A stretch of 41,629 nucleotides of DNA from a bacterium (lineage in GTDB: Bacteria; Bdellovibrionota_C; UBA2361; CALJRW01), in the NCBI GenBank assembly GCA_031385045.1, contig JANNBC010000001.1, positions 1 to 41,629 on the forward strand, in the 5' to 3' direction. The notes below the pieces were generated by a model. The model had not been told where the DNA came from. It did not search any database and was given only the letters and a program-made list of their open reading frames with translations. Position numbers and translations under genes: made by a program. Positions 1,160-22,160 of this stretch are shown here, one piece after another (position 1 is the stretch's first letter; every line of letters starts with the position of its first letter).

Positions 1160-3832
1160 TTACTTCTTCAGATTATCAAATTCAGATTGCAGAATTAGAT
1201 CTCCAGTATAGATACCCTCAGAGACCAGTAAATGACTTTCTACATTCGAAACTGTAATTTCCGATAAGATAAAGTTAATCACATTTTGACCAACGGCGAC
1301 AGGTAATAATTCTTGATTATCAACAACTACCCAAGAGCCATCAGCTTTTTTCACAAAATCTCCTTGCCTCACATCGACAGCTCGTTTTAAGCCAGCTTTT
1401 GTTAAGACAACATGTTTCTGACTGACGGTAATTTTTTCCGGGCCATAAGTTAATTTAATTAACCCTATTTTTTCAGGACCTTCTACTACCTTTAGAACTT
1501 CCAGTGTTTGCCCAGCTACTCCTAATAAATGATCGCCTACCTGAACATTCTCAACTAAAACTTTTTCGTTATTAGCCAAGGTAATCTTAGTACCAGGAGG
1601 GAAACATCCGTCACTGCCACGATTACAAGCACAAGTCCAACAAGCATTAGGATCGGCTGAGATCTGAGTCGAAGTAAAATTATCATTTCCATTATTACCA
1701 TTATTGATCGTAATGTTTCCAGAACTATCAACTCGAGTAATAGTGGCATTGGAATTAGTATTTCCAAAGAATAAGTCTGCGATACCGCGAAAATTTCTAA
1801 AATTAAACGCTGAATCTACCCCATCACCTGGAACACAAACTATCCGATAATCAGGACAGAACTGGTTTGTACCATTCCCACGATCGACTTGAGTTGGCAC
1901 AGGAACATTATCACATGAATTAACTTTACAAGTGATTGAACATTCCGAAGCAGTTCCATTACTGGCTCCTAGATCGCAATCCTCACCAAGATCAACTATT
2001 CCATCACCACAATATGGATCGACATTACAATCTGAGTTACAGATTGCACCAGCATTTCCTGCTTGAACACCAGAATCTAGTTTAAAGTCATCACCGTCAC
2101 ATAGCTCATCATTATTTCTAAGGCCATCACCACAATATGGAATGACTTCACATGACGGAGTACAAACTTCTCCTGTGGAGCCGGCTTGAATTCCATCTGC
2201 GGTTCCAAAGTCAGTACCATCGCACAGTTCATTTACATTCCTTAGGCCATCACCACAGTATGGGTTAATCTGACACTGAGCATTACAAAGTAAATTATTA
2301 GCACTTACTTGAAGACCTTCCTCCAGCCCAAAATCAGTCCCATCGCATAGCTCATTGTTATCTCTTACTCCATCACCGCAATATGGATCTACATTACAAT
2401 CAGAGTTACAGATTGCACCTTTAGCCCCCGCTTGAATACCTGAGTCTAGTTTAAAATCATCCCCATCACAGAGCTCATTATTATTTCTAAGATTATCTCC
2501 ACAATATGGAATTACTTCACATGTCGGGTTACAAACCTGTCCATTCAGACCTGCTTGAATTCCTTCCGCAGTTCCAAAGTCAGTTCCATCACAAAATTCA
2601 TTGGCATTTCGTTTTCCATCACCACAATATGGATTAACTTGGCACTGAGCATTACATGTCACAGCAGGACTAATCGTAGTTGCAAGAATACCGAAATCTG
2701 TGCCATCACAAAGTTCGTTAGAATCTTTAATTCCATCACCGCAATATGGATTAATTTGGCAACTGGAGTTACAAACTTCACCTAGCTTGCCAGCTTGACT
2801 GCCAGCATCTAATTTAAAATCGTTGCCATCACATAGCTCGTTATCATCTCTGACACCATCACCACAATATGGATTTACTTGGCAGCTTGAGTTACAAACT
2901 TGTCCATTAGTACCTACTTGAACTCCTTCCGCAGTTCCAAAGTCAGTACCATCGCAAAGCTCATTTAAGTTCCTTCGGCCGTCACCACAGTATGGATTAA
3001 TCTGACACTGTGCATTACAAACTTGCCCATTTAAACCAATTTGAACACCTTCATCAATTCCAAAATCAATACCATCACAAAGTTCATTGTTACCTCTGAT
3101 GCCATCACCGCAATAGGGATTGATTTCACAATTAACAGAACAGGTAGCATTAGGATGAGTAACAGAACCTAAGTTAGTAGAATCACACTCCTCAATTCCA
3201 GCTTGAATTTCGCCATCACCACAATAAGTACATTTGAATCCATTACTACGACAACCGGCAACATAGCCATTATTTCCACTGGTAATTCCATAATCACAGG
3301 ATTCATGATTAGCAGCATCAATGTAACCATCACCACAAGTAATTACTTTACAGTTATTTCTACAAACTTTTCCGGTTGGAACATCGCTTCCATCACATTC
3401 CTCCGAGGGATCGTTCACATCACCATCGCCACACTTAGTGCAATTAGGGCGACATCCCAGACGCGTTGCGGGATCATTAAAATCACAAGTTTCACCTTTT
3501 GGTAAATCAATTGTAGTTGTCCAAACTCCATCTCCACAGTATGGAAGCTTGCAATCCTTGCGGCAATTATCTGTTAAATTTGCATTGCCATCATCACACT
3601 CCTCACCAAGTAAAACGAGCCCATCTCCACAATATGAACAGGTAAAACATTCACAATGACTACAACCACAAATATTTGGATCGGAAACAATGGTTGACTC
3701 CTGACCAGGAGGACAAGAAACTTGAATCGGCGCACGATCTTGCGCTAGCAGTATAATTGGAAAAATTGTTAGAAGTAAAAGGCTACAAAGTAACCTCCCA
3801 TCTGGTATGGAAAAAACGAGTTGTCTAGACAT
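1160..3832 (-). CDS. Exported Cys-rich repeat protein (Myxococcus Cys-rich/DUF4215-like CGDG repeats) with C-terminal Hint domain, 890 aa
   Basis: Signal peptide (..PIILLA|QDR), 15 CGD(G/N) repeats (e.g. CGDGLVLLGEECDDGN), then G|CFPPGTKITLA...TVSQKHV...HLLVSEGIYTGDL Hint motifs. Confidence 0.9.
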   Translation of the reverse strand: MSRQLVFSIPDGRLLCSLLLLTIFPIILLAQDRAPIQVSCPPGQESTIVSDPNICGCSHCECFTCSYCGDGLVLLGEECDDGNANLTDNCRKDCKLPYCGDGVWTTTIDLPKGETCDFNDPATRLGCRPNCTKCGDGDVNDPSEECDGSDVPTGKVCRNNCKVITCGDGYIDAANHESCDYGITSGNNGYVAGCRSNGFKCTYCGDGEIQAGIEECDSTNLGSVTHPNATCSVNCEINPYCGDGIRGNNELCDGIDFGIDEGVQIGLNGQVCNAQCQINPYCGDGRRNLNELCDGTDFGTAEGVQVGTNGQVCNSSCQVNPYCGDGVRDDNELCDGNDFKLDAGSQAGKLGEVCNSSCQINPYCGDGIKDSNELCDGTDFGILATTISPAVTCNAQCQVNPYCGDGKRNANEFCDGTDFGTAEGIQAGLNGQVCNPTCEVIPYCGDNLRNNNELCDGDDFKLDSGIQAGAKGAICNSDCNVDPYCGDGVRDNNELCDGTDFGLEEGLQVSANNLLCNAQCQINPYCGDGLRNVNELCDGTDFGTADGIQAGSTGEVCTPSCEVIPYCGDGLRNNDELCDGDDFKLDSGVQAGNAGAICNSDCNVDPYCGDGIVDLGEDCDLGASNGTASECSITCKVNSCDNVPVPTQVDRGNGTNQFCPDYRIVCVPGDGVDSAFNFRNFRGIADLFFGNTNSNATITRVDSSGNITINNGNNGNDNFTSTQISADPNACWTCACNRGSDGCFPPGTKITLANNEKVLVENVQVGDHLLGVAGQTLEVLKVVEGPEKIGLIKLTYGPEKITVSQKHVVLTKAGLKRAVDVRQGDFVKKADGSWVVVDNQELLPVAVGQNVINFILSEITVSNVESHLLVSEGIYTGDLILQSEFDNLKK
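1163..1606 (-). other. Hint (Hedgehog/intein-like) domain of the 890-aa protein, Cys1 = Cys743
   Basis: Block A CFPPGTKI, VENVQVGD strand, block B-like VSQKH, AVDVRQGD, block F-like VINF, terminal HLLVSEGIYTGD. Confidence 0.85.
2015..3115 (-). repeat. Intragenic tandem array: 9 units of 41 aa (123 bp; one unit is 39 aa)
   Basis: Consensus YCGDGxRxxNELCDGxDFxxxxGxQxGxxGxxCNxxCxVxP; 8x41+39 = 367 aa = 1101 bp. Confidence 0.92.
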
Positions 3833-4065: not shown

Positions 4066-6840
4066 TTACTGATTAATTATCTCCTGAGCAGTAAGATCCC
4101 CAGTAACAATTCCATCTGAAAGCACCATATGGTTATCTAATTGATCATCACCTTCTAAGCGGATATTTAATACTTTTTGGCTAGATTTAATCGGAAGATA
4201 TTTTACTTTGGTAACTTCTGCTTTTGTTCCATTTAAAGTTAAGAGATCTCCAGTTTTAACATCACGAGCTAGAATAACCCCATCATTAGTTTTTACTGGA
4301 TGTTTCTGAGTCACTCGAACAGATTTATCCCCCACAGCGATTTCTACAATTGCTTCAGATTCAGAAGATTCTAGAACATTCTTAACTTTAGCGATTTTAC
4401 CACTTACTGGATTTAAAACTTCTTCTCCCGCGTGTATATCTTGAATTTCTTTTTCTTCTCCATTCGCCATTAAAATTTTGGTTTCTGGCACAAAGCAACC
4501 TTCTAATCTTAAAGCTGCACAGGTCCAACAAACATTCTCTTGGAAGGCACATGTATTTTCATAAGGTACGCGCTTATTATCCTTGTTGTAATAATGAACC
4601 GTTGTATCAATCACAGTTTTATTTGTTGGATCACTCCCCCAATTGTATACAAAACCATCAACTCGGGCGATCCCTTTAGTGCCATCACCAGCTCCAAAAA
4701 ATAATTTTCCAGAACCATCATAGTCATGATTATTATTAACAAAAGCATCTTCTAATTGCTGCGTCCAACCTGCTGGCCGTAGTGCATTAGAAGTTCCACC
4801 AGTCAAATCATTAACAAGTGTTGGTTTCCATCCCCAAGCATCATTAACTGTTAGGATTTCACCATTTTGATCAACATCGATCCCTTCAATTGCTTCCAGA
4901 ATCCTTGTGCCTTCATCGATAAATTGTTGTGTGCTAAGCTTTCCATCTTTATCTAATGAATTTGTATAATACCAACCACCGTAAACTCCATTCTCACGAG
5001 AATGATAACCAAGCACACAAACTCTCATATTAAACATGGTATAATTACCCATATCTTCAACTTTACCTTGTTGATCTTCTGGATACTCCAAACCTAGGCA
5101 ACAATTGGCCTCACCGTAATACTGCTCACTTGGATCACGCCCACAAGCATCATCCTCAACTTTACATGTTGAAGAACAAGTTGCGTTTGGATTAATTGCC
5201 AGAATTTCTGGATTAATATCATTCCCATCACATTCTTCAAGCTCTGAACAAACCGTATATCCTGCACTGATCCCTCTTGAACTACAAGTGTAATCACTTA
5301 CATATTCAAGAACTCCAGCACTATTTTTAATCCAAGAACTATTTGGATGAGGCTGACCTGGACCTGCTGGTTGAACCTCACAAACGCCACTACCACGAAC
5401 TCCATCACCACAGTAATTTTTCACAATTACTTTACATTGCTGTGGATTACAAAATAGAGCACTTTCGGGAATGTTTTTAGAATTAGTATATCCAGAAAAG
5501 TCTGTCCCTTCACATTCCTCTGTTCCATTTACTAGACCATCACCACAATAAGGTGTTACTTTACATGTCTCCGGATTACAGGAAGCTAAGGGATGAACTG
5601 GACTTTTTAAATAATGACAACCATCACACTCTTCATTGCCGTTAACTGCATTATCACCACAGTAAGTTTTAACTTCCACAGTGCATTTATCGGTACATGT
5701 AATGGCACTACGCGGAAGTTCTGGATGAAGATCTAAATATGCTTGAGCAACATCATTGCCATCGCATGTCTCATCAGAGTTAGCGATCTTATCACCACAA
5801 TATTCTTCTACGATAACCTTGCAGTCGCTGGTACAGACCAAAGCATCTCGAGGAATGTTGGATTTATCTGGATTACGTTTATAAAATAAATCAAAATCAA
5901 TACCATCACACTCCTCATCTTCCGTGCAATAGCCAGTATTATTTGTGAAATCAACACAGAGTGCTGGCGTGGCAACACCATCACCACAGTATTTCTTAAC
6001 ATGTACTTCACAACTGGCAGTACAGATTAAATTTGCAAGAGGAATATTATTAGGATTTTTATAATTACCAAAATTTGTTCCTTCGCAAGTCTCGTTACTG
6101 GCTAATTGCCCATCTCCACAATATGAATTTATTTTGCAAGTAGCAGAGCAGCTCGCATTAGGATTTGTAACTGTTCCTAGATTGGTAGAATCGCACTCTT
6201 CAACTCCTGCTTGAATTTCACCATCGCCACAGTATGTACATTTAAAGCCATTACTTCGGCAACCAGCGACATACCCACTATGCCCACTTGTAATTCCATA
6301 GTCACAAGTCTCATGATTAAGATTATCGATATAACCATCTCCACATGAAACTAACTTACAATTATCTCGACAAACTTTACCGGCAGGCTTATCTGTTCCA
6401 TCACATTCTTCGGAAAGATCATTCCGAAGATTATCACCACACTTAGTACAATTGGTACGACATCCCGTACGAGTGGCAGGATCATTAAAATCACAAGTTT
6501 TACCCTTTGGTAAATCAATAGTGGAAGTCCATACTCCATCTCCACAGTATGGAAGTTTACAATCTTTACGACAGTTATCCGTTAAATTCGCATTTCCATC
6601 ATCACATTCCTCACCTTGCAAAACTAGTCCATCTCCACAATAGGAGCAGGTAAAACATTCACAGCTACTACAACCACAAATATTAGGATCGGAAACTAAA
6701 GTTGGCTTTTGTCCAGGAGGACACGAAACATTTGAGGAAATCCGATCTTGAGCAAAGAGTAATGTTGGTAAAATTGTTATGAGTAAAAGGCTACAAAGTA
6801 ACCTCCTACAAGAAACCGAAGAAATGAACTGTCTAGACAT
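4066..6840 (-). CDS. Exported Cys-rich repeat protein with C-terminal Hint domain, 924 aa; paralogue of 1160-3832
   Basis: Signal peptide (..PTLLFA|QDR), 11 CGD(G/N/K) repeats, first ~245 aa collinear with the 890-aa protein, G|CFVPETKILMA...RVTQKHPV...HMVLSDGIVTGDL. Confidence 0.9.
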   Translation of the reverse strand: MSRQFISSVSCRRLLCSLLLITILPTLLFAQDRISSNVSCPPGQKPTLVSDPNICGCSSCECFTCSYCGDGLVLQGEECDDGNANLTDNCRKDCKLPYCGDGVWTSTIDLPKGKTCDFNDPATRTGCRTNCTKCGDNLRNDLSEECDGTDKPAGKVCRDNCKLVSCGDGYIDNLNHETCDYGITSGHSGYVAGCRSNGFKCTYCGDGEIQAGVEECDSTNLGTVTNPNASCSATCKINSYCGDGQLASNETCEGTNFGNYKNPNNIPLANLICTASCEVHVKKYCGDGVATPALCVDFTNNTGYCTEDEECDGIDFDLFYKRNPDKSNIPRDALVCTSDCKVIVEEYCGDKIANSDETCDGNDVAQAYLDLHPELPRSAITCTDKCTVEVKTYCGDNAVNGNEECDGCHYLKSPVHPLASCNPETCKVTPYCGDGLVNGTEECEGTDFSGYTNSKNIPESALFCNPQQCKVIVKNYCGDGVRGSGVCEVQPAGPGQPHPNSSWIKNSAGVLEYVSDYTCSSRGISAGYTVCSELEECDGNDINPEILAINPNATCSSTCKVEDDACGRDPSEQYYGEANCCLGLEYPEDQQGKVEDMGNYTMFNMRVCVLGYHSRENGVYGGWYYTNSLDKDGKLSTQQFIDEGTRILEAIEGIDVDQNGEILTVNDAWGWKPTLVNDLTGGTSNALRPAGWTQQLEDAFVNNNHDYDGSGKLFFGAGDGTKGIARVDGFVYNWGSDPTNKTVIDTTVHYYNKDNKRVPYENTCAFQENVCWTCAALRLEGCFVPETKILMANGEEKEIQDIHAGEEVLNPVSGKIAKVKNVLESSESEAIVEIAVGDKSVRVTQKHPVKTNDGVILARDVKTGDLLTLNGTKAEVTKVKYLPIKSSQKVLNIRLEGDDQLDNHMVLSDGIVTGDLTAQEIINQ
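4069..4497 (-). other. Hint domain of the 924-aa protein, Cys1 = Cys782
   Basis: CFVPETKI, IQDIHAGE, TxxH motif TQKH, ARDVKTGD, VLNI, HMVLSDGIVTGD. Confidence 0.88.
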
Positions 6841-7565: not shown

Positions 7566-8606
7566 TTAAATTAACATTTCCCTTTCTGCCGCATTTTTAC
7601 GATACTCTTGGTAATGTTGAGAATTTTGTAAAAATAATCCAGCACCTGCTACTACTGCAGAAATTGGATCTGGCGCACGATGAACTTTAATTCCAAGCTC
7701 CTCTGAAAGACGCTTCTCTAAACCTCTTAGTAGGCTTCCACCACCAGAAAGGTTTAATCCTGTAGAGATAATATCTCCAGCCAATTCTGGAGGAGTAATC
7801 TCCAAAGTTTGTCGAATTGCAGCAATAATGCTGGATACGACTTCAGACATAGACTCCCGCATTTCTTTACTTGTTACAGTAATGCAGTGTGGAGCTCCAC
7901 TAGTTAAGCTTCGTCCCTTAACCTTCATTTCCAGAGTGTCAAAGTCAGGGTGAGCAGAACCAATTGTTAATTTAATTTTTTCAGCTGTTAATTCACCGAT
8001 TAATAGGTGACGTACACGACGTAAATAATTAATAATTGCTTCATCTATTGTATCACCACCTTGCCTTACTGATAGTGCCTGCACAACATCACCTAAACTG
8101 ATCACCGCGATATCTGTTGTCCCCCCACCGATATCTACGATCATATTTGCGGTGGCTTCATCAACTGGTAAATTTGAACCAATAGCTGCGGCCATCGCTT
8201 CATCTACTAATTGCACTTCTCTGGTTTTATTTTCGATCGAAAGACGAATGGCTCTTTTTTCAACTTCTGTAATCCCACAAGGAATTCCAACAATCACTCG
8301 AGGTTTGAAAATATTAATGGAATTATCTGTTACCTTATCAAGGTAATGGGCTAACATCATTCCTGCTACTTCAAAATCAGCAATCACCCCTGTTCTAACT
8401 GGGCGAACGACATCGACTCCAGGAGGTGTCTTACCTAACATTGCCTTGGCTTCTGCGCCAAAAGCTATTGCAACCTTCTTGTTGCCAACCTTTTTAACAG
8501 CAACGACACTTGGTTCATTTAAAATAATACCAGCATCTTTAGCATAGATTAAAGTATTAGCGGTTCCTAAATCAATGGCCAAGTCCCGAGCAACAAAACT
8601 AAACAT
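7566..8606 (-). CDS. mreB: MreB/Mbl-family actin-like rod shape-determining protein
   Basis: AIDLGTANT, NEPSVVA, GVIADF, ITEVEKRA, IVDIGGGTTDIAVISL, TPPELAGDI, SGGGSLL motifs. Confidence 0.93.
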   Translation of the reverse strand: MFSFVARDLAIDLGTANTLIYAKDAGIILNEPSVVAVKKVGNKKVAIAFGAEAKAMLGKTPPGVDVVRPVRTGVIADFEVAGMMLAHYLDKVTDNSINIFKPRVIVGIPCGITEVEKRAIRLSIENKTREVQLVDEAMAAAIGSNLPVDEATANMIVDIGGGTTDIAVISLGDVVQALSVRQGGDTIDEAIINYLRRVRHLLIGELTAEKIKLTIGSAHPDFDTLEMKVKGRSLTSGAPHCITVTSKEMRESMSEVVSSIIAAIRQTLEITPPELAGDIISTGLNLSGGGSLLRGLEKRLSEELGIKVHRAPDPISAVVAGAGLFLQNSQHYQEYRKNAAEREMLI

Positions 8607-8685
8607 GAAATAATCTATTTAAAAAAAAGGGAAAATACTGGATAATCCTTGAGGATAGCGAGTATTCTCTTAAAAATCAAACAAT

Positions 8686-9534
8686 ATGGCTAAAATTGAA
8701 ACAATTGCTGTGGTTGGTGCTGGGCAAATGGGTCTAGGAATTGCAGAGCTCTGCGCTAGCAAAAACTATCAGGTTCAACTCTTTGATAGTAATTCTCAAA
8801 TATTAAATAACGCTAAAATCCGGTTAACTGCCTCAGGTCTCAAACTAGTAGAAAAAGGTAAAATTACCTCTGTGCTTCAAGCTCAGATTATTAATAATAT
8901 TCAAACCTTTAATGATCTAAGCAAACTAAAAGATGCCGATCTGATCATTGAAGCTGTAATTGAAAGTTATGATGTTAAATCTTCCCTCTTTAAAAATCTA
9001 TCTGCCGTTGCCAAAGAATCAGCGATCTTAGCCTCTAATACTTCCTCACTATCCATTACTAGAATGGCGAACTCTTTTATTCGTCCTGATAAATTTATTG
9101 GTTTGCATTTCTTTAATCCAGCTCCAGTAATGCCACTAGTTGAAGTTATTGCTGGACTAAAAACTAGCTTAACGACGAAACAGTTAGTAATTGCTTTTGC
9201 TCAAACCTTAGAGAAAGAAGCAATCACAGCCAATGATACTCCCGGATTTATTGTAAACAGAATCTTGTGTCCAATGATTAATGAAGCCATTTTCCTTTTG
9301 GCCGAGGGTAACAATGCTCAAGAGATCGATCAGGCATTAAAACTAGGTGCGAATCACCCAATGGGGCCCTTACAATTGGCTGACTTTGTAGGACTAGATA
9401 CTTTATTAAGAATCTTAGAAATTTACCAAGAAGAATTTGGAGAAGACAAGTATCGACCTTGCCCACTACTTCGCCAATATGTTAACGCTGGATGGTTGGG
9501 ACGAAAATCTGGCAAAGGTTTTTATACTTACTAG
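8686..9534 (+). CDS. hbd: 3-hydroxybutyryl-CoA (3-hydroxyacyl-CoA) dehydrogenase
   Basis: GAGQMG Rossmann motif, IEAVIE, ASNTSSLSIT, GLHFFNPAPVM, PGFIVNR, HPMGPLQLADFVGLD, GRKSGKGFYTY. Confidence 0.9.
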   Translation: MAKIETIAVVGAGQMGLGIAELCASKNYQVQLFDSNSQILNNAKIRLTASGLKLVEKGKITSVLQAQIINNIQTFNDLSKLKDADLIIEAVIESYDVKSSLFKNLSAVAKESAILASNTSSLSITRMANSFIRPDKFIGLHFFNPAPVMPLVEVIAGLKTSLTTKQLVIAFAQTLEKEAITANDTPGFIVNRILCPMINEAIFLLAEGNNAQEIDQALKLGANHPMGPLQLADFVGLDTLLRILEIYQEEFGEDKYRPCPLLRQYVNAGWLGRKSGKGFYTY

Positions 9535-10817
9535 ACTGCGGCCTCTAGGATCTTTCTTAGTAATTCACTATTATGAGAATGACCTGTCATGTTAGCAGTA
9601 ATCTTTCCAACGATTGGCCGACCAAGAAGATAAATATCCCCGATCATATCTAAGATTTTGTGCCTAACTGGCTCATCTGGAAAACGTAACTCTGAGTTAA
9701 TAACTCCATCTTCTCCAATTAGAACAAAATTATTAAATCTTCCACCTTGAGCTAAGCCTTGCTTCTGAAGGTAATCAATGTCTTTTACAAAACCAAAAGT
9801 GCGACAGCTAGCAATTTCATTTTGATAATTTTCAAAACTATCCATTTTAAAAATGTAATGTTGCTCCCCGATTGGTTGTTGATAATTTAAGGTGTAATCA
9901 ATGATTAGTTCTTCCGCCGGTTCTAAACGAATAAAGGCTTCACCCTTACGAACTTCAATAGTTTTAGTGACCATTAATTCGGGAATAGTTGCCGACTGCT
10001 CCAAGATTCCAACTTCTTGAAAGATCTTACAGAACTCAATCGCCGAACCATCCATTACAGGAACTTCTTCATTACACTTAATTAACAGATTGGTAATACC
10101 AGCAGCATGCAAGGCGGACATTAAGTGCTCAATTGTGGAGACTTGAGAATCTGCATTCTTAATTGTTGTGGCGTAACCAGTCGTGCTGACATAATTGACA
10201 TGAGCTGGAACAGCTTGCTTACTTCCAGGGCCAGCAAAGTGAATGCCAGAATTTTCAGGAAGTGGCTCCAAGATTAGTCCTGATTTACGACCGCTATGCA
10301 CACCTACTCCATAGAGAATACTACTACCTGCTAAGGTTTTTTGCTGTCTAGATTTACCAACAAAAAAATCATTTTGAAAAACATCACTAGTAATCTGGCA
10401 GCTCTGCTCAGATAAACTTTCAATTTCTGGCAAATTTCCCAGATTAGAGTTTTTAGCTGACAAGGCTCTGTTGACTACTTGTTGAATCACTAATAAATCA
10501 AGTGGCTTTTCAATAAAATCGATTGCTCCTAATTGTGTGGCTCGGACAGCTGTAGAAATAGTTGCATGACCACTAATCATCACAACAGGTAAAAGACTAT
10601 CTAGGTTACGAATCTTCTCGAGAGTTTCCATGCCATCCATCCCTGGTAGCCAAATATCTAGGAAAACTAAAGCTGGTGATTTCTCTTTAATAATTTCTAA
10701 AGCCTGATTGCCATTATTAGCATGACAACAACTAAGGCCAAGGTCTTCTAAGACATGGCTTAATGTTTCACAAATACTTTGTTCATCATCTACAATCAGC
10801 GCTAAATTATTATCCAT
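9531..10817 (-). CDS. lpxC: Fusion: response-regulator receiver domain + UDP-3-O-acyl-N-acetylglucosamine deacetylase
   Basis: REC: IVDDE, LDIWLPGMDG, MISGH, DFIEKP. LpxC: QKTL..GVGVHSG, STIEHLMSAL, EVPVMDGSA, RTFGF, LRFPDEPVRHKILDMIGD, TGH. ATG at 10817 preferred over the TTG at 10829. Confidence 0.9.
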   Translation of the reverse strand: MDNNLALIVDDEQSICETLSHVLEDLGLSCCHANNGNQALEIIKEKSPALVFLDIWLPGMDGMETLEKIRNLDSLLPVVMISGHATISTAVRATQLGAIDFIEKPLDLLVIQQVVNRALSAKNSNLGNLPEIESLSEQSCQITSDVFQNDFFVGKSRQQKTLAGSSILYGVGVHSGRKSGLILEPLPENSGIHFAGPGSKQAVPAHVNYVSTTGYATTIKNADSQVSTIEHLMSALHAAGITNLLIKCNEEVPVMDGSAIEFCKIFQEVGILEQSATIPELMVTKTIEVRKGEAFIRLEPAEELIIDYTLNYQQPIGEQHYIFKMDSFENYQNEIASCRTFGFVKDIDYLQKQGLAQGGRFNNFVLIGEDGVINSELRFPDEPVRHKILDMIGDIYLLGRPIVGKITANMTGHSHNSELLRKILEAAV

Positions 10818-10957
10818 AGTAAATTTCAAAAAATAATTACAAAAATAGTAATTTACGGCGAGTGTGAATAATGGATTTATCCAATTTCACACCGCAAAAA
10901 TAAAATAGATAGTGTTTCATTAAAACCTTTAATAGCGACAAAGAATTTTAAGAAACA

Positions 10958-12277
10958 CTAAGCGTTACCGGTAAAAACTCGAATTGTCTCTGCCGTATTA
11001 GAAAACAATGTTGCCGCTCGATCGGGACCAACACTTACTAAAGAAATTGGACATGCAATAATCTCAGAAACTGTTGCTAAATAAAGTTTAACGGCAGCTG
11101 GAAGCTGGTGCCATTTAGTAAGAGCAGAAATATCTTCTTCCCAACCTGGTAACTCAATATATTCAGGAGTTACTAAAGCAAGATCGGCTGCTAAAGATGG
11201 AACATCATCTAACTTCTGACCATCTAAATAATAATTGATACAAACTTTAATTTTTTCCATTCCAGAAAGAACATCCAGTTTGGTCATGGCTAAAGTCTCT
11301 ACTCCATTTAAACGAACAGCACGCTTTAAGGCAAAAGTATCTAACCAGCCACAACGTCTTGGTCGTCCAGTCACAGTTCCAAACTCATGTCCCTTTTGAC
11401 GAAGCTCTTCTCCGGCCACACCATGCAATTCAGTTGGAAATGGACCTTCCCCGACACGGGTGGAATAGGCCTTAACAACACCTAAGATATTATCAATTGC
11501 TTTTGGACCAACACCACAGCCAATAGTGACTGCTCCTGCAATTGTGTTGGAAGATGTCACGTAGGGAACTGTTCCATGAATCTGATCTAGTAATGTGCCT
11601 TGAGCACCTTCAAAAACAATTTTTTGTTGATTTTTAAGGGCATGGTCTAAGATTAAGCTGACATTTCCGATGTAAGGACAAAGCTCTTTGGCGGCTAATT
11701 CAATATCACTCCAAATTTTATCAAAACTAATTTCTTCTGGATAATCTAAAACATATTTTAAAGTTTTATTAATTTTAACAATCTTTTCTTGAATTCGGGG
11801 CTTTAAGTCAGCAAGTTTAAATAATTCAGCCAAGCGAACCCCAGAGCGATCAACCCGATCTTCATAACAAGGACCAATCCCCTTGCCTGTTGTTCCAATT
11901 TTTTGATCTCCTCGACTAATTTCTCGAGCGAGATCAAGAACACGATGATAATCTAGAATTAGGTGGGAGTCCCGATCTAGGACTAATCTTTGAGGATTAA
12001 TTTTATATCCAGCGGCTTGCAAGCCAGTAACTTCCCCTGTAAAAATCTTGGGATCAACCACACATCCTGCGCCAATTAAGCAACAACAATTTTCCCGTAA
12101 AATGCCTGATGGAATTAGATTAAGTTTGGTTGTCTTTCCTTCCACAACAATTGTGTGACCAGCATTGTTACCACCATGAAAACGAACAACATAATCAGCA
12201 GCAGAAGTTAAGTAGTCAACTAGTTTACCCTTACCTTCGTCACCCCACTGACATCCAACAACTACTAGTGAAGACAT
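10958..12277 (-). CDS. purA: Adenylosuccinate synthetase
   Basis: QWGDEGKGK, GGNNAGHT, GTTGKGIGPCYED, FEGAQG, EFGTVTGRPRRCGW, TKLDVL. Confidence 0.98.
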   Translation of the reverse strand: MSSLVVVGCQWGDEGKGKLVDYLTSAADYVVRFHGGNNAGHTIVVEGKTTKLNLIPSGILRENCCCLIGAGCVVDPKIFTGEVTGLQAAGYKINPQRLVLDRDSHLILDYHRVLDLAREISRGDQKIGTTGKGIGPCYEDRVDRSGVRLAELFKLADLKPRIQEKIVKINKTLKYVLDYPEEISFDKIWSDIELAAKELCPYIGNVSLILDHALKNQQKIVFEGAQGTLLDQIHGTVPYVTSSNTIAGAVTIGCGVGPKAIDNILGVVKAYSTRVGEGPFPTELHGVAGEELRQKGHEFGTVTGRPRRCGWLDTFALKRAVRLNGVETLAMTKLDVLSGMEKIKVCINYYLDGQKLDDVPSLAADLALVTPEYIELPGWEEDISALTKWHQLPAAVKLYLATVSEIIACPISLVSVGPDRAATLFSNTAETIRVFTGNA

Positions 12278-12316
12278 TAATCTTTACCAAAAATAAAATG
12301 ATTTTATCTCTTAGCT

Positions 12317-13201
12317 TTAGGCCTTAGCCCGAAAAGCGAACTCCCATTTATTAGCATTATTTACAATTAAACCCAATGGTTCCCCATTAAATTGATAAAT
12401 AATTGGCGAATTTGCGGGATCTAAATCCTGTGTGAAATCAACTAAGGCTTGAGGCAAACCATTTTGTAGTTTTAAGGCAAGATCCTCAGTAACAGCTATC
12501 AAGCTAGCATCGGGAAAAAGCAAAGTCCAAGGGAAAATATCTTGATTTTCTAGAGTATCAATTTCCTTCGCTTCCTTAATAAAAAAGGGCAAAGATGCTT
12601 CTCTCCGCAAACTTGCAATTGTCCCTCCAGAACCAAGCATTTCACCTAATTCGCGAGCTATCGAGCGAATATATGTACCAACTGTTGATTTGATTTCAAA
12701 ACTTAAAAGATTCTCCGCAATCAAGTTGTACTTAAAACTTTTAATATCAATTTGTCGGGGCTTTAACTCAACAACTTTTCCCTCGCGAGCTAACTTATAT
12801 GCTCTTTGGCCATTAACTTTTAGTGCACTATAGCTTGGTGGCATTTGAGAAATAAGACCAGAAAATTTGGAATTAATAACTTCTGTAATTTGAGATAAGC
12901 TCGGCAAGTTATCACTTTGAGAGACTATCTCCCCTTCAAGATCATCGGTTGTAGTTTGAATACCAAATTGAATTGTACCAGAGTAAATCTTATCATTTTT
13001 CTCAACATAAGAAGCAAGTCTAGTTGCTCTTCCTGTTAAACAAACGAGTAAACCAGTAGCTAATGGATCTAGCGTTCCACAATGACCAATCTTTTCTAGG
13101 GATAGCTTTCTTTTAATTTCTAGAATTGCTTTCTGAGAAGTAATCTTTAGTTTTTTATCTAATAAAATCACACCCGCCGAAGCATGACCGACTACAGACA
13201 T
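12317..13201 (-). CDS. truB: tRNA pseudouridine(55) synthase
   Basis: KIGHCGTLDPLATGLL, QMPPSYSALKVNGQRAYKLAREG, GTYIRS; operon context. Confidence 0.96.
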   Translation of the reverse strand: MSVVGHASAGVILLDKKLKITSQKAILEIKRKLSLEKIGHCGTLDPLATGLLVCLTGRATRLASYVEKNDKIYSGTIQFGIQTTTDDLEGEIVSQSDNLPSLSQITEVINSKFSGLISQMPPSYSALKVNGQRAYKLAREGKVVELKPRQIDIKSFKYNLIAENLLSFEIKSTVGTYIRSIARELGEMLGSGGTIASLRREASLPFFIKEAKEIDTLENQDIFPWTLLFPDASLIAVTEDLALKLQNGLPQALVDFTQDLDPANSPIIYQFNGEPLGLIVNNANKWEFAFRAKA

Positions 13202-19928: not shown

Positions 19929-22160
19929 ATGATTAATCAATTAACCCGCCAGATTACGTTTTCCGCGATATTAATCATATTAAGTGCTTTTGACTGCTTG
20001 GCGATTGATTTTTTAGTTCCTGCTAATAAATTAGCTCCAAAAGCTTGGAATCCAGTAACAGAAGAATGGAGCAATGAAACAATCAAGGGATATGCCGAAA
20101 CCCAAACTACTGCTCAAGTTGTTGAGATTCAAAACCTTGAGGAGATTAACGATTCAAATTTAAAATTAATTCTTTGTTTACACACCCAAGTTCTTAAATT
20201 AACTCCTAGTGATACCTTCTATGCTTTCACCGAGTTTAATACTTGGAATACCACATACCATCCTACTACCCTACCAGATGGTTCTCCAATGCCTGTTGCC
20301 TCTTCCACACAAGATTCAATTCAAGCAATTAATGCCAACATCTTAAGCGTCTCAACTCCGTCAACTTCGGAAGCACTTTGTCCAAACATTGGAGATGATA
20401 AATATCTTGGTTTGCAAGTAGTCTTCACAAAAATTAACCCTAACCTCAATGCCTATCTGCTTTATGGTGGGAAACTTTCAAAAGTTGGATCGAGCCTACC
20501 AACTGGACTATTAACAGCTACTGTTCCTGCAGATAAAAGTTCCTCATTTATTAACGGATTATCAGAGAACTTTAATACAGCGGTAGTTGGGTCTGAAGGA
20601 TTAAAATTTGTTCCATTTGGAAACATTTCTTTAGAGCCAGGAATTCAGCTAACAAAATCTGTCACTCTACCAGAAGGCCAATGTGGAGTTGATGATCTGG
20701 AAGAATTATCTGTAGTTAGTAATACCAATGTTAAATTCTGTTTTAAAGTGACTAATACAGCCAAGGCACCATTGCTAAATGTAAATTTAAATGATGATAC
20801 ACTAGTTGTTAATCTAAGTGATTCATTAGTCGGATTAACAGATCAAGATGCTGATGGCCAAGCTGATGATTTAGCAATTGGTTCTTGGGCGACAGCAGAA
20901 TATTCCTACACAATTAATGAATCACTAGAAAACAGTGCCACGGCTTCTGGTAGTGCTATCAATAGTCAAGACCAAAGTGCTGTTAGAATTTCTATTTGTG
21001 GAAATGAAGTTGTTGAGGCTGGAGAAGAATGTGACACGCTAAATGGTTGTACTGCTAATTGTACTTTTGAAGATCTATGCGGAAATCAAGAAATCGATCC
21101 AGGCGAAGATTGTGATAGCACCGAGGGATGTAACAGTAATTGCCAGTTTGCGGTTTGTGGAAATGGCATTGTCGAGGAAGACGCTGGTGAGCAATGTGAT
21201 CACGGGAAAGAACAGACTGAATGCTCGAGTGATGAACCTGATTGTTTTGAAAACCAAAAACTATCAGAAGCCCCACCAGTTGAACTAGCATGTAGCGATA
21301 CTTGTCTTTTAGAAATTTGTGGTAACGGCATCTTAGATTCCGGCGAAGAATGCGATGATAGCAATCAAGTCAACGGAGATAATTGTAGCGCCTCTTGTCT
21401 GCAAGAAGTCTGCGGTAATGGAGTTCTAGATTACAATGAAGAATGTGACTATGGAGACACCCTAAATGGCGATGGCTGTAGTAGTTTCTGTCGACTCGAA
21501 GTCTGTGGCAATGGAATCGTCGATCTCACAGAGCAATGTGACGACGGAAATGCAACCTTAAAAGATGGTTGTAGCAATATCTGTCAGCTAGAAGAAGATT
21601 GTCAGGATGGTAAATGTGCCCCAACAATTGAAATCTTTAATTGTGTTGATGAGAATGGTCAGCAGAATAATCTTGACCGCTGTCAAGGTTGTGGAGGTGA
21701 CGGACTAAGTTGTATTTCATGCGTCTCTAAAAGTAATATTGAAGACCAATTAAAAATGGATGGTGCCTCAAAGCAACTGGCCATCTTAATTAAAAACCTA
21801 AATAACAATATCTTAAAACGCTCCATCACTGATAAGCTTAAAAAAGACATTCTGGAATCAAATCTAAAAGTTGAAGATTTATATCTAACAAGCTGGTCCC
21901 TATCTTGGTCATTACCAATGATTACCAAAGCCTGTAGCTCAGTGTTTTGTACTACTGAGGATCTCTCTGGGCTAGCGACACTCTACAAAAGTAAGCTCTT
22001 AGAATTAGTTCAAGAAGCAAGAAAATCATCCCGAATCTTTAAGCGATTAACTGGCAAGAAGAAATCAGCTCAAAAATTCTTATCCGCAGTAAATGAACAA
22101 TACGATTCTGGTATTCAGACTGCGGGTAATGTTACTACAGCAACAAGTGTCTGTTTTTAA
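19929..22160 (+). CDS. Exported Cys-rich repeat protein (DUF4215-like) with a DUF11-like Ig domain and an uncharacterised C-terminal module, 743 aa
   Basis: Signal peptide, PGIQLTKSV...FCFKVTNT...LLNVNLNDD...NSATASG (DUF11-like), repeated CGNG..D.GEECDDGN...DGCS..C, then [13 protein letters not shown] and a helical tail. Confidence 0.85.

Follow-up and report, generated by a model that had tools for sequence, protein, structure and literature searches.

Contig JANNBC010000001.1 of the bacterial assembly GCA_031385045.1 (Bdellovibrionota_C; source genome G000) carries, within the 41,629-nucleotide stretch that was analysed (hereafter the window), a single gene in which an NtrX-type phosphorylation receiver (REC) domain is joined to LpxC, the deacetylase that commits the cell to lipid A synthesis. 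On sequence comparison this is an ancient fusion, conserved across the phylum and common to other phyla. We propose that an NtrY-type membrane kinase/phosphatase encoded on contig C8 of the same genome would set the phosphorylation of residue D54 of the fusion protein, which would act as a response regulator whose output is LpxC itself. The fusion circuit would have replaced an ancestral one, in which NtrY/NtrX activated lpxC transcription from a sigma-54 promoter. Direct control of LpxC catalysis, with phosphorylation as the ON state, is the favored reading, with a probability of roughly 0.6; what we infer comprises the pairing of kinase and receiver, the regulation of LpxC, an allosteric mode of action in preference to one through stability, the direction of the effect, and the stimulus that the kinase detects.

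The fusion gene and its parts are as follows.

9531..10817, minus strand: REC-LpxC fusion gene, 428 aa, the genome's only lpxC
10446..10817, minus strand: NtrX-type receiver domain, residues 1-124, with D10/D11/E12, D54, S82, F101, and K104
10656-10658, minus strand: codon of the phospho-acceptor D54
10344..10445, minus strand: linker, about residues 125-158, variable and of low confidence at 127-137, then partly conserved and ordered
9546..10343, minus strand: LpxC deacetylase domain, with E230, H231, T340, H386, K387, D390, and H413 intact

The open reading frame (ORF) spans 9531..10829 on the minus strand when counted from its first TTG and encodes 428 aa from the ATG at 10817, the start that is matched by the database gene call (P0001, 428 aa). 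Pfam placed Response_reg at residues 7-115 (E 1.4e-29) and LpxC at residues 159-424 (E 1.2e-87; 294.3 against a cut-off of 27; model positions 1-267 of 268), and TIGR00325 (lpxC) gave 259.4 bits against a cut-off of 187.25. The first-pass annotation, which was made from the sequence alone, had described one frame with a receiver, a linker, and LpxC; Pfam and the reading of the ORF confirmed this, with a linker of about 34 aa, and every motif that it had named was found. These are D10-D11-E12, D54 in LDIWLPGMDG, S82 in MISGH, and K104 in FIEKP in the receiver, whose aromatic switch residue is F101, and EHLMSAL (230), HKILD (386), and TGH (411) in LpxC, in which E230, H231, T340, H386, K387, D390, and H413 align to Pseudomonas aeruginosa LpxC.

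The NtrX-like character ascribed to the receiver also held. Among 104 NCBIfam matches, its top receiver-family match was NtrX NF051870 (residues 7-124, 115.8 bits), followed by AtoC at 89.9 bits, and in a tree it grouped with NtrX-type receivers, apart from the other receivers of G000 (support 0.866). The whole-protein cut-off of NF051870 is 600 bits and was missed by the fusion, in which AAA+ and Fis-type helix-turn-helix (HTH) domains are absent; by its domain content, the protein is not an NtrX family member but is derived from one. The fusion is likewise distinct from LpxC-FabZ (NF009667; 200.7 against a cut-off of 465): a FabA-like domain is absent, and fabZ of G000 is a separate gene adjoining lpxA on contig C6.

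An AlphaFold2 model built on an 86-sequence alignment (predicted local distance difference test score, pLDDT, 89.6; predicted template modeling score, pTM, 0.75) showed a receiver fold, a poorly predicted segment at residues 127-137, to which pLDDT values below 50 were confined, an ordered distal linker, and an LpxC fold. The family consensus of the distal linker is NPxVFxxQxLxG. The modelled LpxC domain matched Aquifex LpxC with a template modeling (TM) score of 0.95 and a root-mean-square deviation of 1.5, and the closest solved receivers were 4d6x and, at full length, 5m7n. A search of G000 (94.9% complete) for further copies of lpxC, a check proposed earlier, yielded no second one, and lpxA, lpxI, lpxB, lpxK, and kdtA were all found. 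Since the fusion is the sole lpxC in a genome with these pathway genes, its predicted LpxC deacetylase activity is likely. Residues 358-364 read GGRFNNF where P. aeruginosa LpxC has GGSVENA, and the Arg is common to most fused LpxCs. The GGSVENA segment lines the acyl-chain passage of LpxC; given GGRFNNF, substrate preference or gating may differ here.

A single contig of run X1, possibly the assembly source, covers the stretch, and the linker is spanned by contigs of runs X2, X3, and X4, all from a second study (X3 and X4 are possibly one data set). The second-study contigs differ by one base, at 10350, read as synonymous. Misassembly or strain-specific read-through, which had been raised as a doubt about the junction, was ruled out by these contigs and by the same-frame fusion across the phylum.

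To define the range of the fusion, 96 phylum genomes at 85% completeness or above were sampled, and match coordinates and frame lengths were compared. REC and LpxC lay in one open frame in 92 genomes; LpxC was present in 95 and a matching receiver in 94. For the remaining four, the halves were on different contigs in G058 and G035, G041 had a partial in-frame receiver at a contig start, and G034 had neither LpxC nor a matching receiver. Both domains were read directly at 29 of 30 loci of one set and 19 of 20 of another, the other two being cut by contig ends, and were present in all 120 of the best homologues listed. Close homologues bear the source labels Bdellovibrionales, Deltaproteobacteria, Dadabacteria, and Proteobacteria bacterium, and public annotations call the fused proteins just LpxC or NtrX, which hides the architecture. 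Outside the phylum, two-domain fusions were found in Nitrospirota and in unclassified deltaproteobacterial genomes; Atlas clusters with both domains, which serve as a lead only, were found most often in Myxococcota and Binatota. Judged by frame length alone, 9 of 58 matched genomes in the G102 phylum had their best LpxC match in frames of 411-488 aa, and 3 had it in frames of 736-837 aa. The fusion is thus not the recent event beside an ntrX-like gene that had been supposed for this genome; it is old and phylum-wide. In a plasmid search, no REC-LpxC fusion was among the best 8 matches listed, and the sole listed record covering 80% of the query was an LpxC-FabZ locus. A distinct REC-LpxC clade with variable neighbourhoods was also observed (L034-L039 of Nitrospirota, G099, and G177); in G099 and G177, the two genomes checked, the fusion occurs in addition to a separate lpxC gene, a sign of possible horizontal spread.

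Residue conservation was counted over 336 non-identical fused proteins, close kin included (209 with a short and 127 with a long spacer); L040, L047, and L049, which have frame breaks inside the fusion, were treated as probable sequence errors and excluded. D54 was conserved in 333, S/T82 in 336, and K104 in 335 of these proteins. E230, H231, H386, K387, D390, and H413 were invariant in all 321 proteins with a complete LpxC domain, and position 340 was T or S across the fused proteins. At the codon level, both REC and LpxC were shown to be under purifying selection: synonymous and non-synonymous differences from a same-genus genome numbered 51:11 in REC, 119:12 in LpxC, and 8:10 in the linker.

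Sixteen LpxC positions marked the two- and three-domain fusions and were rare in 53 stand-alone LpxCs; K247, R360, and M410 are examples of fusion-specific residues. These positions are candidates for an interface between the domains, and shared ancestry alone may explain them. Prediction of a complex between the receiver (residues 1-126) and the linker with LpxC (138-428) gave 0.01 against a mark of 0.32, which neither supports nor opposes contact. The receiver might instead serve as a degron or a membrane handle for the kinase or a protease adaptor, so that phosphorylation would change the amount or the place of LpxC rather than its turnover number. We consider such control of degradation or localisation unlikely. 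It has precedents in the proteolysis of LpxC in Escherichia coli and its membrane localisation in Neisseria, as treated in the relevant sections of a review (PMC12444477), and the linker is partly flexible and variable; a LapB zinc-ribbon model matched in 1 of 31 genomes, not G000, so that a different route could be required, though this test is weak since Gram-positive controls also match. On the other hand, the distal linker is conserved and ordered, the 16 shared positions fit an adapted surface, subject to the same reservation about ancestry, and the C-termini of the fused proteins are variable, with no common degron-like end seen.

The proposal that the AAA+ and HTH parts were lost from an NtrX-like ancestor was borne out by intermediates in relatives. 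A stand-alone lpxC lies directly upstream of the kinase gene at L255, and lpxC and an ntrX-type gene are 3 kb apart in Desulfacinum (L046), a proximity that is likewise noted for Syntrophobacter in the part of PMC3333781 that concerns it. At L044 and L048, the kinase gene is followed by a REC-AAA+-LpxC fusion of 720-770 aa. Among 40 matched genomes of the class of G098, LpxC lay in frames of 620-783 aa in 29, stood alone in 9, and was short in 2. In 111 three-domain proteins, Walker A was kept in 108, GAFTGA in none, and Walker B was degenerate, and an HTH-like remnant preceded LpxC; with GAFTGA lost and Walker B degenerate, these fusions should not activate sigma-54. REC-HTH_8-LpxC forms were found as single database proteins (P0258 and P0251).

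An LpxC tree of 75 sequences was built with IQ-TREE in fast mode on this single domain, rooted on stand-alone LpxC, and assessed by the Shimodaira-Hasegawa-like approximate likelihood ratio test (SH-aLRT). All fused forms fell in one clade (SH-aLRT 97.3), which also holds two stand-alone proteins, and the forms of the phylum, the three-domain forms, and L032 made up a sub-clade (99.5). Shorter forms were nested among the three-domain ones (P0264, 100; P0258, 100; P0251, 90.9; P0262, 90.7), a pattern suggesting that the AAA+ region was lost more than once. These comparisons suggest that a full-length NtrX was joined to LpxC and that its middle domains then decayed and were lost; the direction of change is taken from the NtrX type of the receiver.

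The first-pass annotation had seen no histidine kinase in the window, and HisKA and HATPase_c were indeed unmatched in the 29 of its 33 ORFs that were scanned. The orphan NtrY-like kinase that it had anticipated was found in G000 at C8:37043-39262(-), with NtrY_N, HAMP, HisKA, and HATPase_c domains, in the order ruvB, DUF4390 gene, kinase, and with no regulator beside it. This kinase gave 344-386 bits against the kinases directly upstream of fusions elsewhere, and the next G000 kinase at most 83. An NtrY-type kinase was matched in 95 of the 96 phylum genomes, one per genome. Kinase neighbourhoods were read at 50 loci of these 95 genomes, with roughly 1.5 kb of flanking sequence, truncated at some loci where the contig ended. 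The H-box HE(I/V)KNPLTP was intact at all 50, ruvB was upstream at 47, and our own four-sequence DUF4390 profile gave a match at 23; a receiver ORF was found in the flanks at none. A pattern for the ATP-binding box was discarded after it matched 1 of 54 kinases, and Pfam HATPase_c was applied to the G000 kinase only.

Outside the phylum, the kinase gene lies directly upstream of the fusion, the two being adjacent at L032, L044, L047, L048, and L049. The order at L032 is ruvA-ruvB-kinase-REC-lpxC (17 bp apart), and L032 groups with the phylum in a separate LpxC tree (support 0.997); an ancestral operon thus appears to have been split, with the kinase left at ruvB. No free NtrX was found in the phylum: the fused receivers scored 94.9 bits or more and second-best receivers no more than 89.8, and the same query gave 106-113 bits with true NtrX proteins of three genomes from outside the phylum. 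The second match in G000, the only one classified, was nearer AtoC than NtrX. By homology, synteny, and elimination, the C8 kinase is the candidate partner of the fusion receiver. Two side observations concern these kinases. G041, in which no NtrY-type kinase was detected (85% complete), holds the most diverged fusion of the phylum (L149, G041:C20:1-1137), with SQG for SGH in the receiver and an LpxC branch of 1.55; selection may have weakened once the kinase was lost, or the assembly may have a gap. Shortened NtrY-type kinases that keep the H-box were found in G059 (L224, 476 aa) and G045 (L225, 614 aa) and seem to have lost part of the sensor or PAS region.

The receiver could also have been retained passively after fusion of operon neighbours, to help folding, to act as a phosphate sink, or to serve a different partner, with LpxC constitutive or separately translated. 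Fusions are common in the lineage (the LpxB-ABC transporter protein of G000 is an example), a few members lack the Asp, and the fused LpxC clade includes, or has at its base, the stand-alone proteins P0305 and possibly P0335. Nevertheless, the phosphorylation site and an intact kinase were kept phylum-wide after DNA binding was lost, with no other NtrX-like receiver present. Separate translation of LpxC, which had been named as a possible objection, gains little from the linker: no in-frame ATG or GTG occurs between codons 118 and 162, where only TTG is found (119 and 129), and Met occurs anywhere in the linker in 47 of 120 homologues. A conserved internal start was thus lacking, and this sign is a weak one in that the native start is itself without a clear ribosome-binding site. 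Taken together, we regard passive retention as highly improbable.

The Desulfovibrio regulator DVU2934, encoded in an operon with the kinase DVU2931, acts on a single target, lpxC, according to the pertinent part of PMC3333781. In a kinase mutant of D. alaskensis (Dde_3000), lpxC alone was raised, via a predicted sigma-54 activator, and the authors concluded, in the passage on this mutant, that the kinase lowers regulator activity (PMC4045070). The Halodesulfovibrio locus L042 has the order DUF4390-kinase-gene-regulator, the regulator having GAFTGA and HTH intact and being its genome's best match to the fusion receiver (54% identity). Upstream of lpxC in Halodesulfovibrio, the reported site occurred with 3 mismatches, a match also given by 13 of 200 shuffles, and a second near-copy of the site and a sigma-54-type promoter were recognized by eye. 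The L042 regulator is probably orthologous to DVU2934, as judged from operon layout and the site.

Because DNA binding is gone, LpxC is the only output left for the conserved receiver and kinase. The sign assigned to phosphorylation in the favored reading follows the ancestral activator and the Bordetella system. In the latter, as reported in the part of PMC13001219 that deals with it, the regulator is required in its phosphorylated form, and the kinase's phosphatase activity is held back by the DUF4390 protein; by this analogy, and jointly with control of catalysis at the probability given above, phosphorylation would switch LpxC ON. If phosphorylation instead inhibited LpxC, or if the unphosphorylated receiver were needed, the kinase would brake lipid A synthesis. 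Such a sign would agree with Rhodobacter sphaeroides, where loss of NtrYX raised lpxC mRNA 8.8-fold and also raised lipopolysaccharide (LPS), and with the rise of lpxC upon kinase loss in D. alaskensis. The Rhodobacter effect is, however, described as indirect in the section reporting it (PMC7240162), and the D. alaskensis regulator is a sigma-54 activator, so that the kinase effect fits phosphatase action on an activating phospho-form (PMC4045070). With the Bordetella requirement added, the opposite sign appears improbable.

Several observations weigh against the proposed circuit or against the history given for it. In the phylum, the kinase is encoded away from the fusion gene, so their pairing is argued from ancestry and elimination. 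The Asp is missing in three fused proteins (P0264, which has N; P0268; P0324), which indicates that the switch can be lost. The nesting of the phylum's form inside the three-domain clade had an SH-aLRT of only 61, and the monophyly of the fused receivers was weakly supported (0.665). In the order of G100, the distribution is patchy, with LpxC in frames of 410-532 aa in 16 of 31 genomes, and in G099 and G177 the fusion accompanies the stand-alone gene, as described above. Regarding the sign, NtrYX lowers lpxC transcripts in Rhodobacter and Caulobacter, as stated in the parts of PMC7240162 and PMC12444477 on these bacteria.

Other features of the window and genome are given here.

10958..12277, minus strand: purA, the usual upstream neighbour in the phylum, given as context
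10841..10920, strand not assigned: copy of a dispersed repeat that folds into a hairpin; it separates purA from the fusion gene

The purA gene was upstream of the fusion gene at 40 of 50 loci. The repeat is intergenic, about 45-80 bp long, with copies on C8, C12, C26, and C55 (two); its minus strand folds as a hairpin (-16.6 kcal/mol, z -2.9) that is REP-like or terminator-like. Scans of 8400-12600 were at chance level for promoters (11 found, 11.5 expected) and terminators (3 found, 3.7 expected). Three large cysteine-rich proteins with DUF4215 repeats are encoded in the window at 1160-3832(-), 4066-6840(-), and 19929-22160(+); the first two have C-terminal Hint/Vint domains, a feature suggestive of surface proteins that cleave themselves. 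Elsewhere in G000, a single frame at G000:C54:148856-151843(-) (L271:5857-8844), adjoining lpxK and kdtA, encodes LpxB joined to an MsbA-like ABC transporter (995 aa; domains LpxB, ABC_membrane, and ABC_tran). Of 61 phylum genomes, 8 had LpxB in frames of 915-1091 aa and one more in a frame of 715 aa; the partner domain was identified in G000 only.

No description of a REC-LpxC fusion was found in the literature listings searched, supplements and output-domain census tables being outside that search. A 2025 review of lipid A regulation (PMC12444477) treats proteolysis, MurA, Ght, and transcriptional control by NtrYX and ChvGI; its text has no "fusion" or "fused", and the sections covered have no phosphorylation control of LpxC. 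The relevant passage of bioRxiv 10.1101/2021.11.05.467447 deals with the Desulfovibrio operon only. The parts of a receiver-enzyme protein and their logic are already known; LpxC as the output is not described in the literature searched. How LpxC is restrained outside enterobacteria and pseudomonads is named as an open question in that review (PMC12444477). The signal of NtrY is also unsettled, and with the fusion both questions become accessible in a two-protein in vitro system; the living intermediates record how control over one step passed from the transcriptional to the post-translational level. A direct phospho-switch, if true, would be a further control of LpxC beside proteolysis, MurA binding, and transcription, and envelope or LPS status would be indicated as the ancestral NtrY signal. 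The chances seem about even that, in several little-studied Gram-negative lineages, a periplasm-sensing NtrY kinase/phosphatase with a DUF4390 partner phosphorylates LpxC, in a circuit that began when a transcription factor became joined to the enzyme encoded by its sole target gene and afterwards, on more than one occasion, lost its ATPase and DNA-binding domains.

CheB, PleD/WspR, and RpfG are enzyme-output response regulators with an N-terminal receiver and a catalytic domain, and their outputs are signalling enzymes. The fusion resembles them in having the receiver and enzyme in one chain and differs in that its output is an essential biosynthetic enzyme, which acts at the committed step in making the envelope. 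LpxC-FabZ is also an LpxC fusion, but with a C-terminal enzyme partner, whereas the partner here is an N-terminal regulatory domain.

Known protein-level control of LpxC comprises FtsH/LapB/YejM in E. coli, activation by MurA in P. aeruginosa, and Ght in Neisseria, as covered in the review (PMC12444477); these systems act at the same node and level, but rely on proteolysis or on a separate protein that binds LpxC. NtrY/NtrX of alphaproteobacteria and PlrP/PlrS/PlrR of Bordetella share with the fusion circuit the NtrX receiver match, NtrY_N, and the DUF4390 neighbour, and envelope genes including lpxC respond to NtrYX according to the part of PMC7240162 on its targets. NtrX and PlrR are DNA-binding regulators with broad regulons and indirect control of lpxC, whereas the fusion is without a DNA-binding domain. 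The Desulfovibrio pairs DVU2931/DVU2934 and Dde_3000/Dde_3003 are like the fusion circuit in kinase type (NtrY_N-HAMP-PAS-HisKA-HATPase after a DUF4390 gene), receiver type, and controlled step. Their regulator is transcriptional, with a GAFTGA-bearing AAA+ domain and HTH, whereas the fusion has neither of these domains and its receiver is attached to LpxC.

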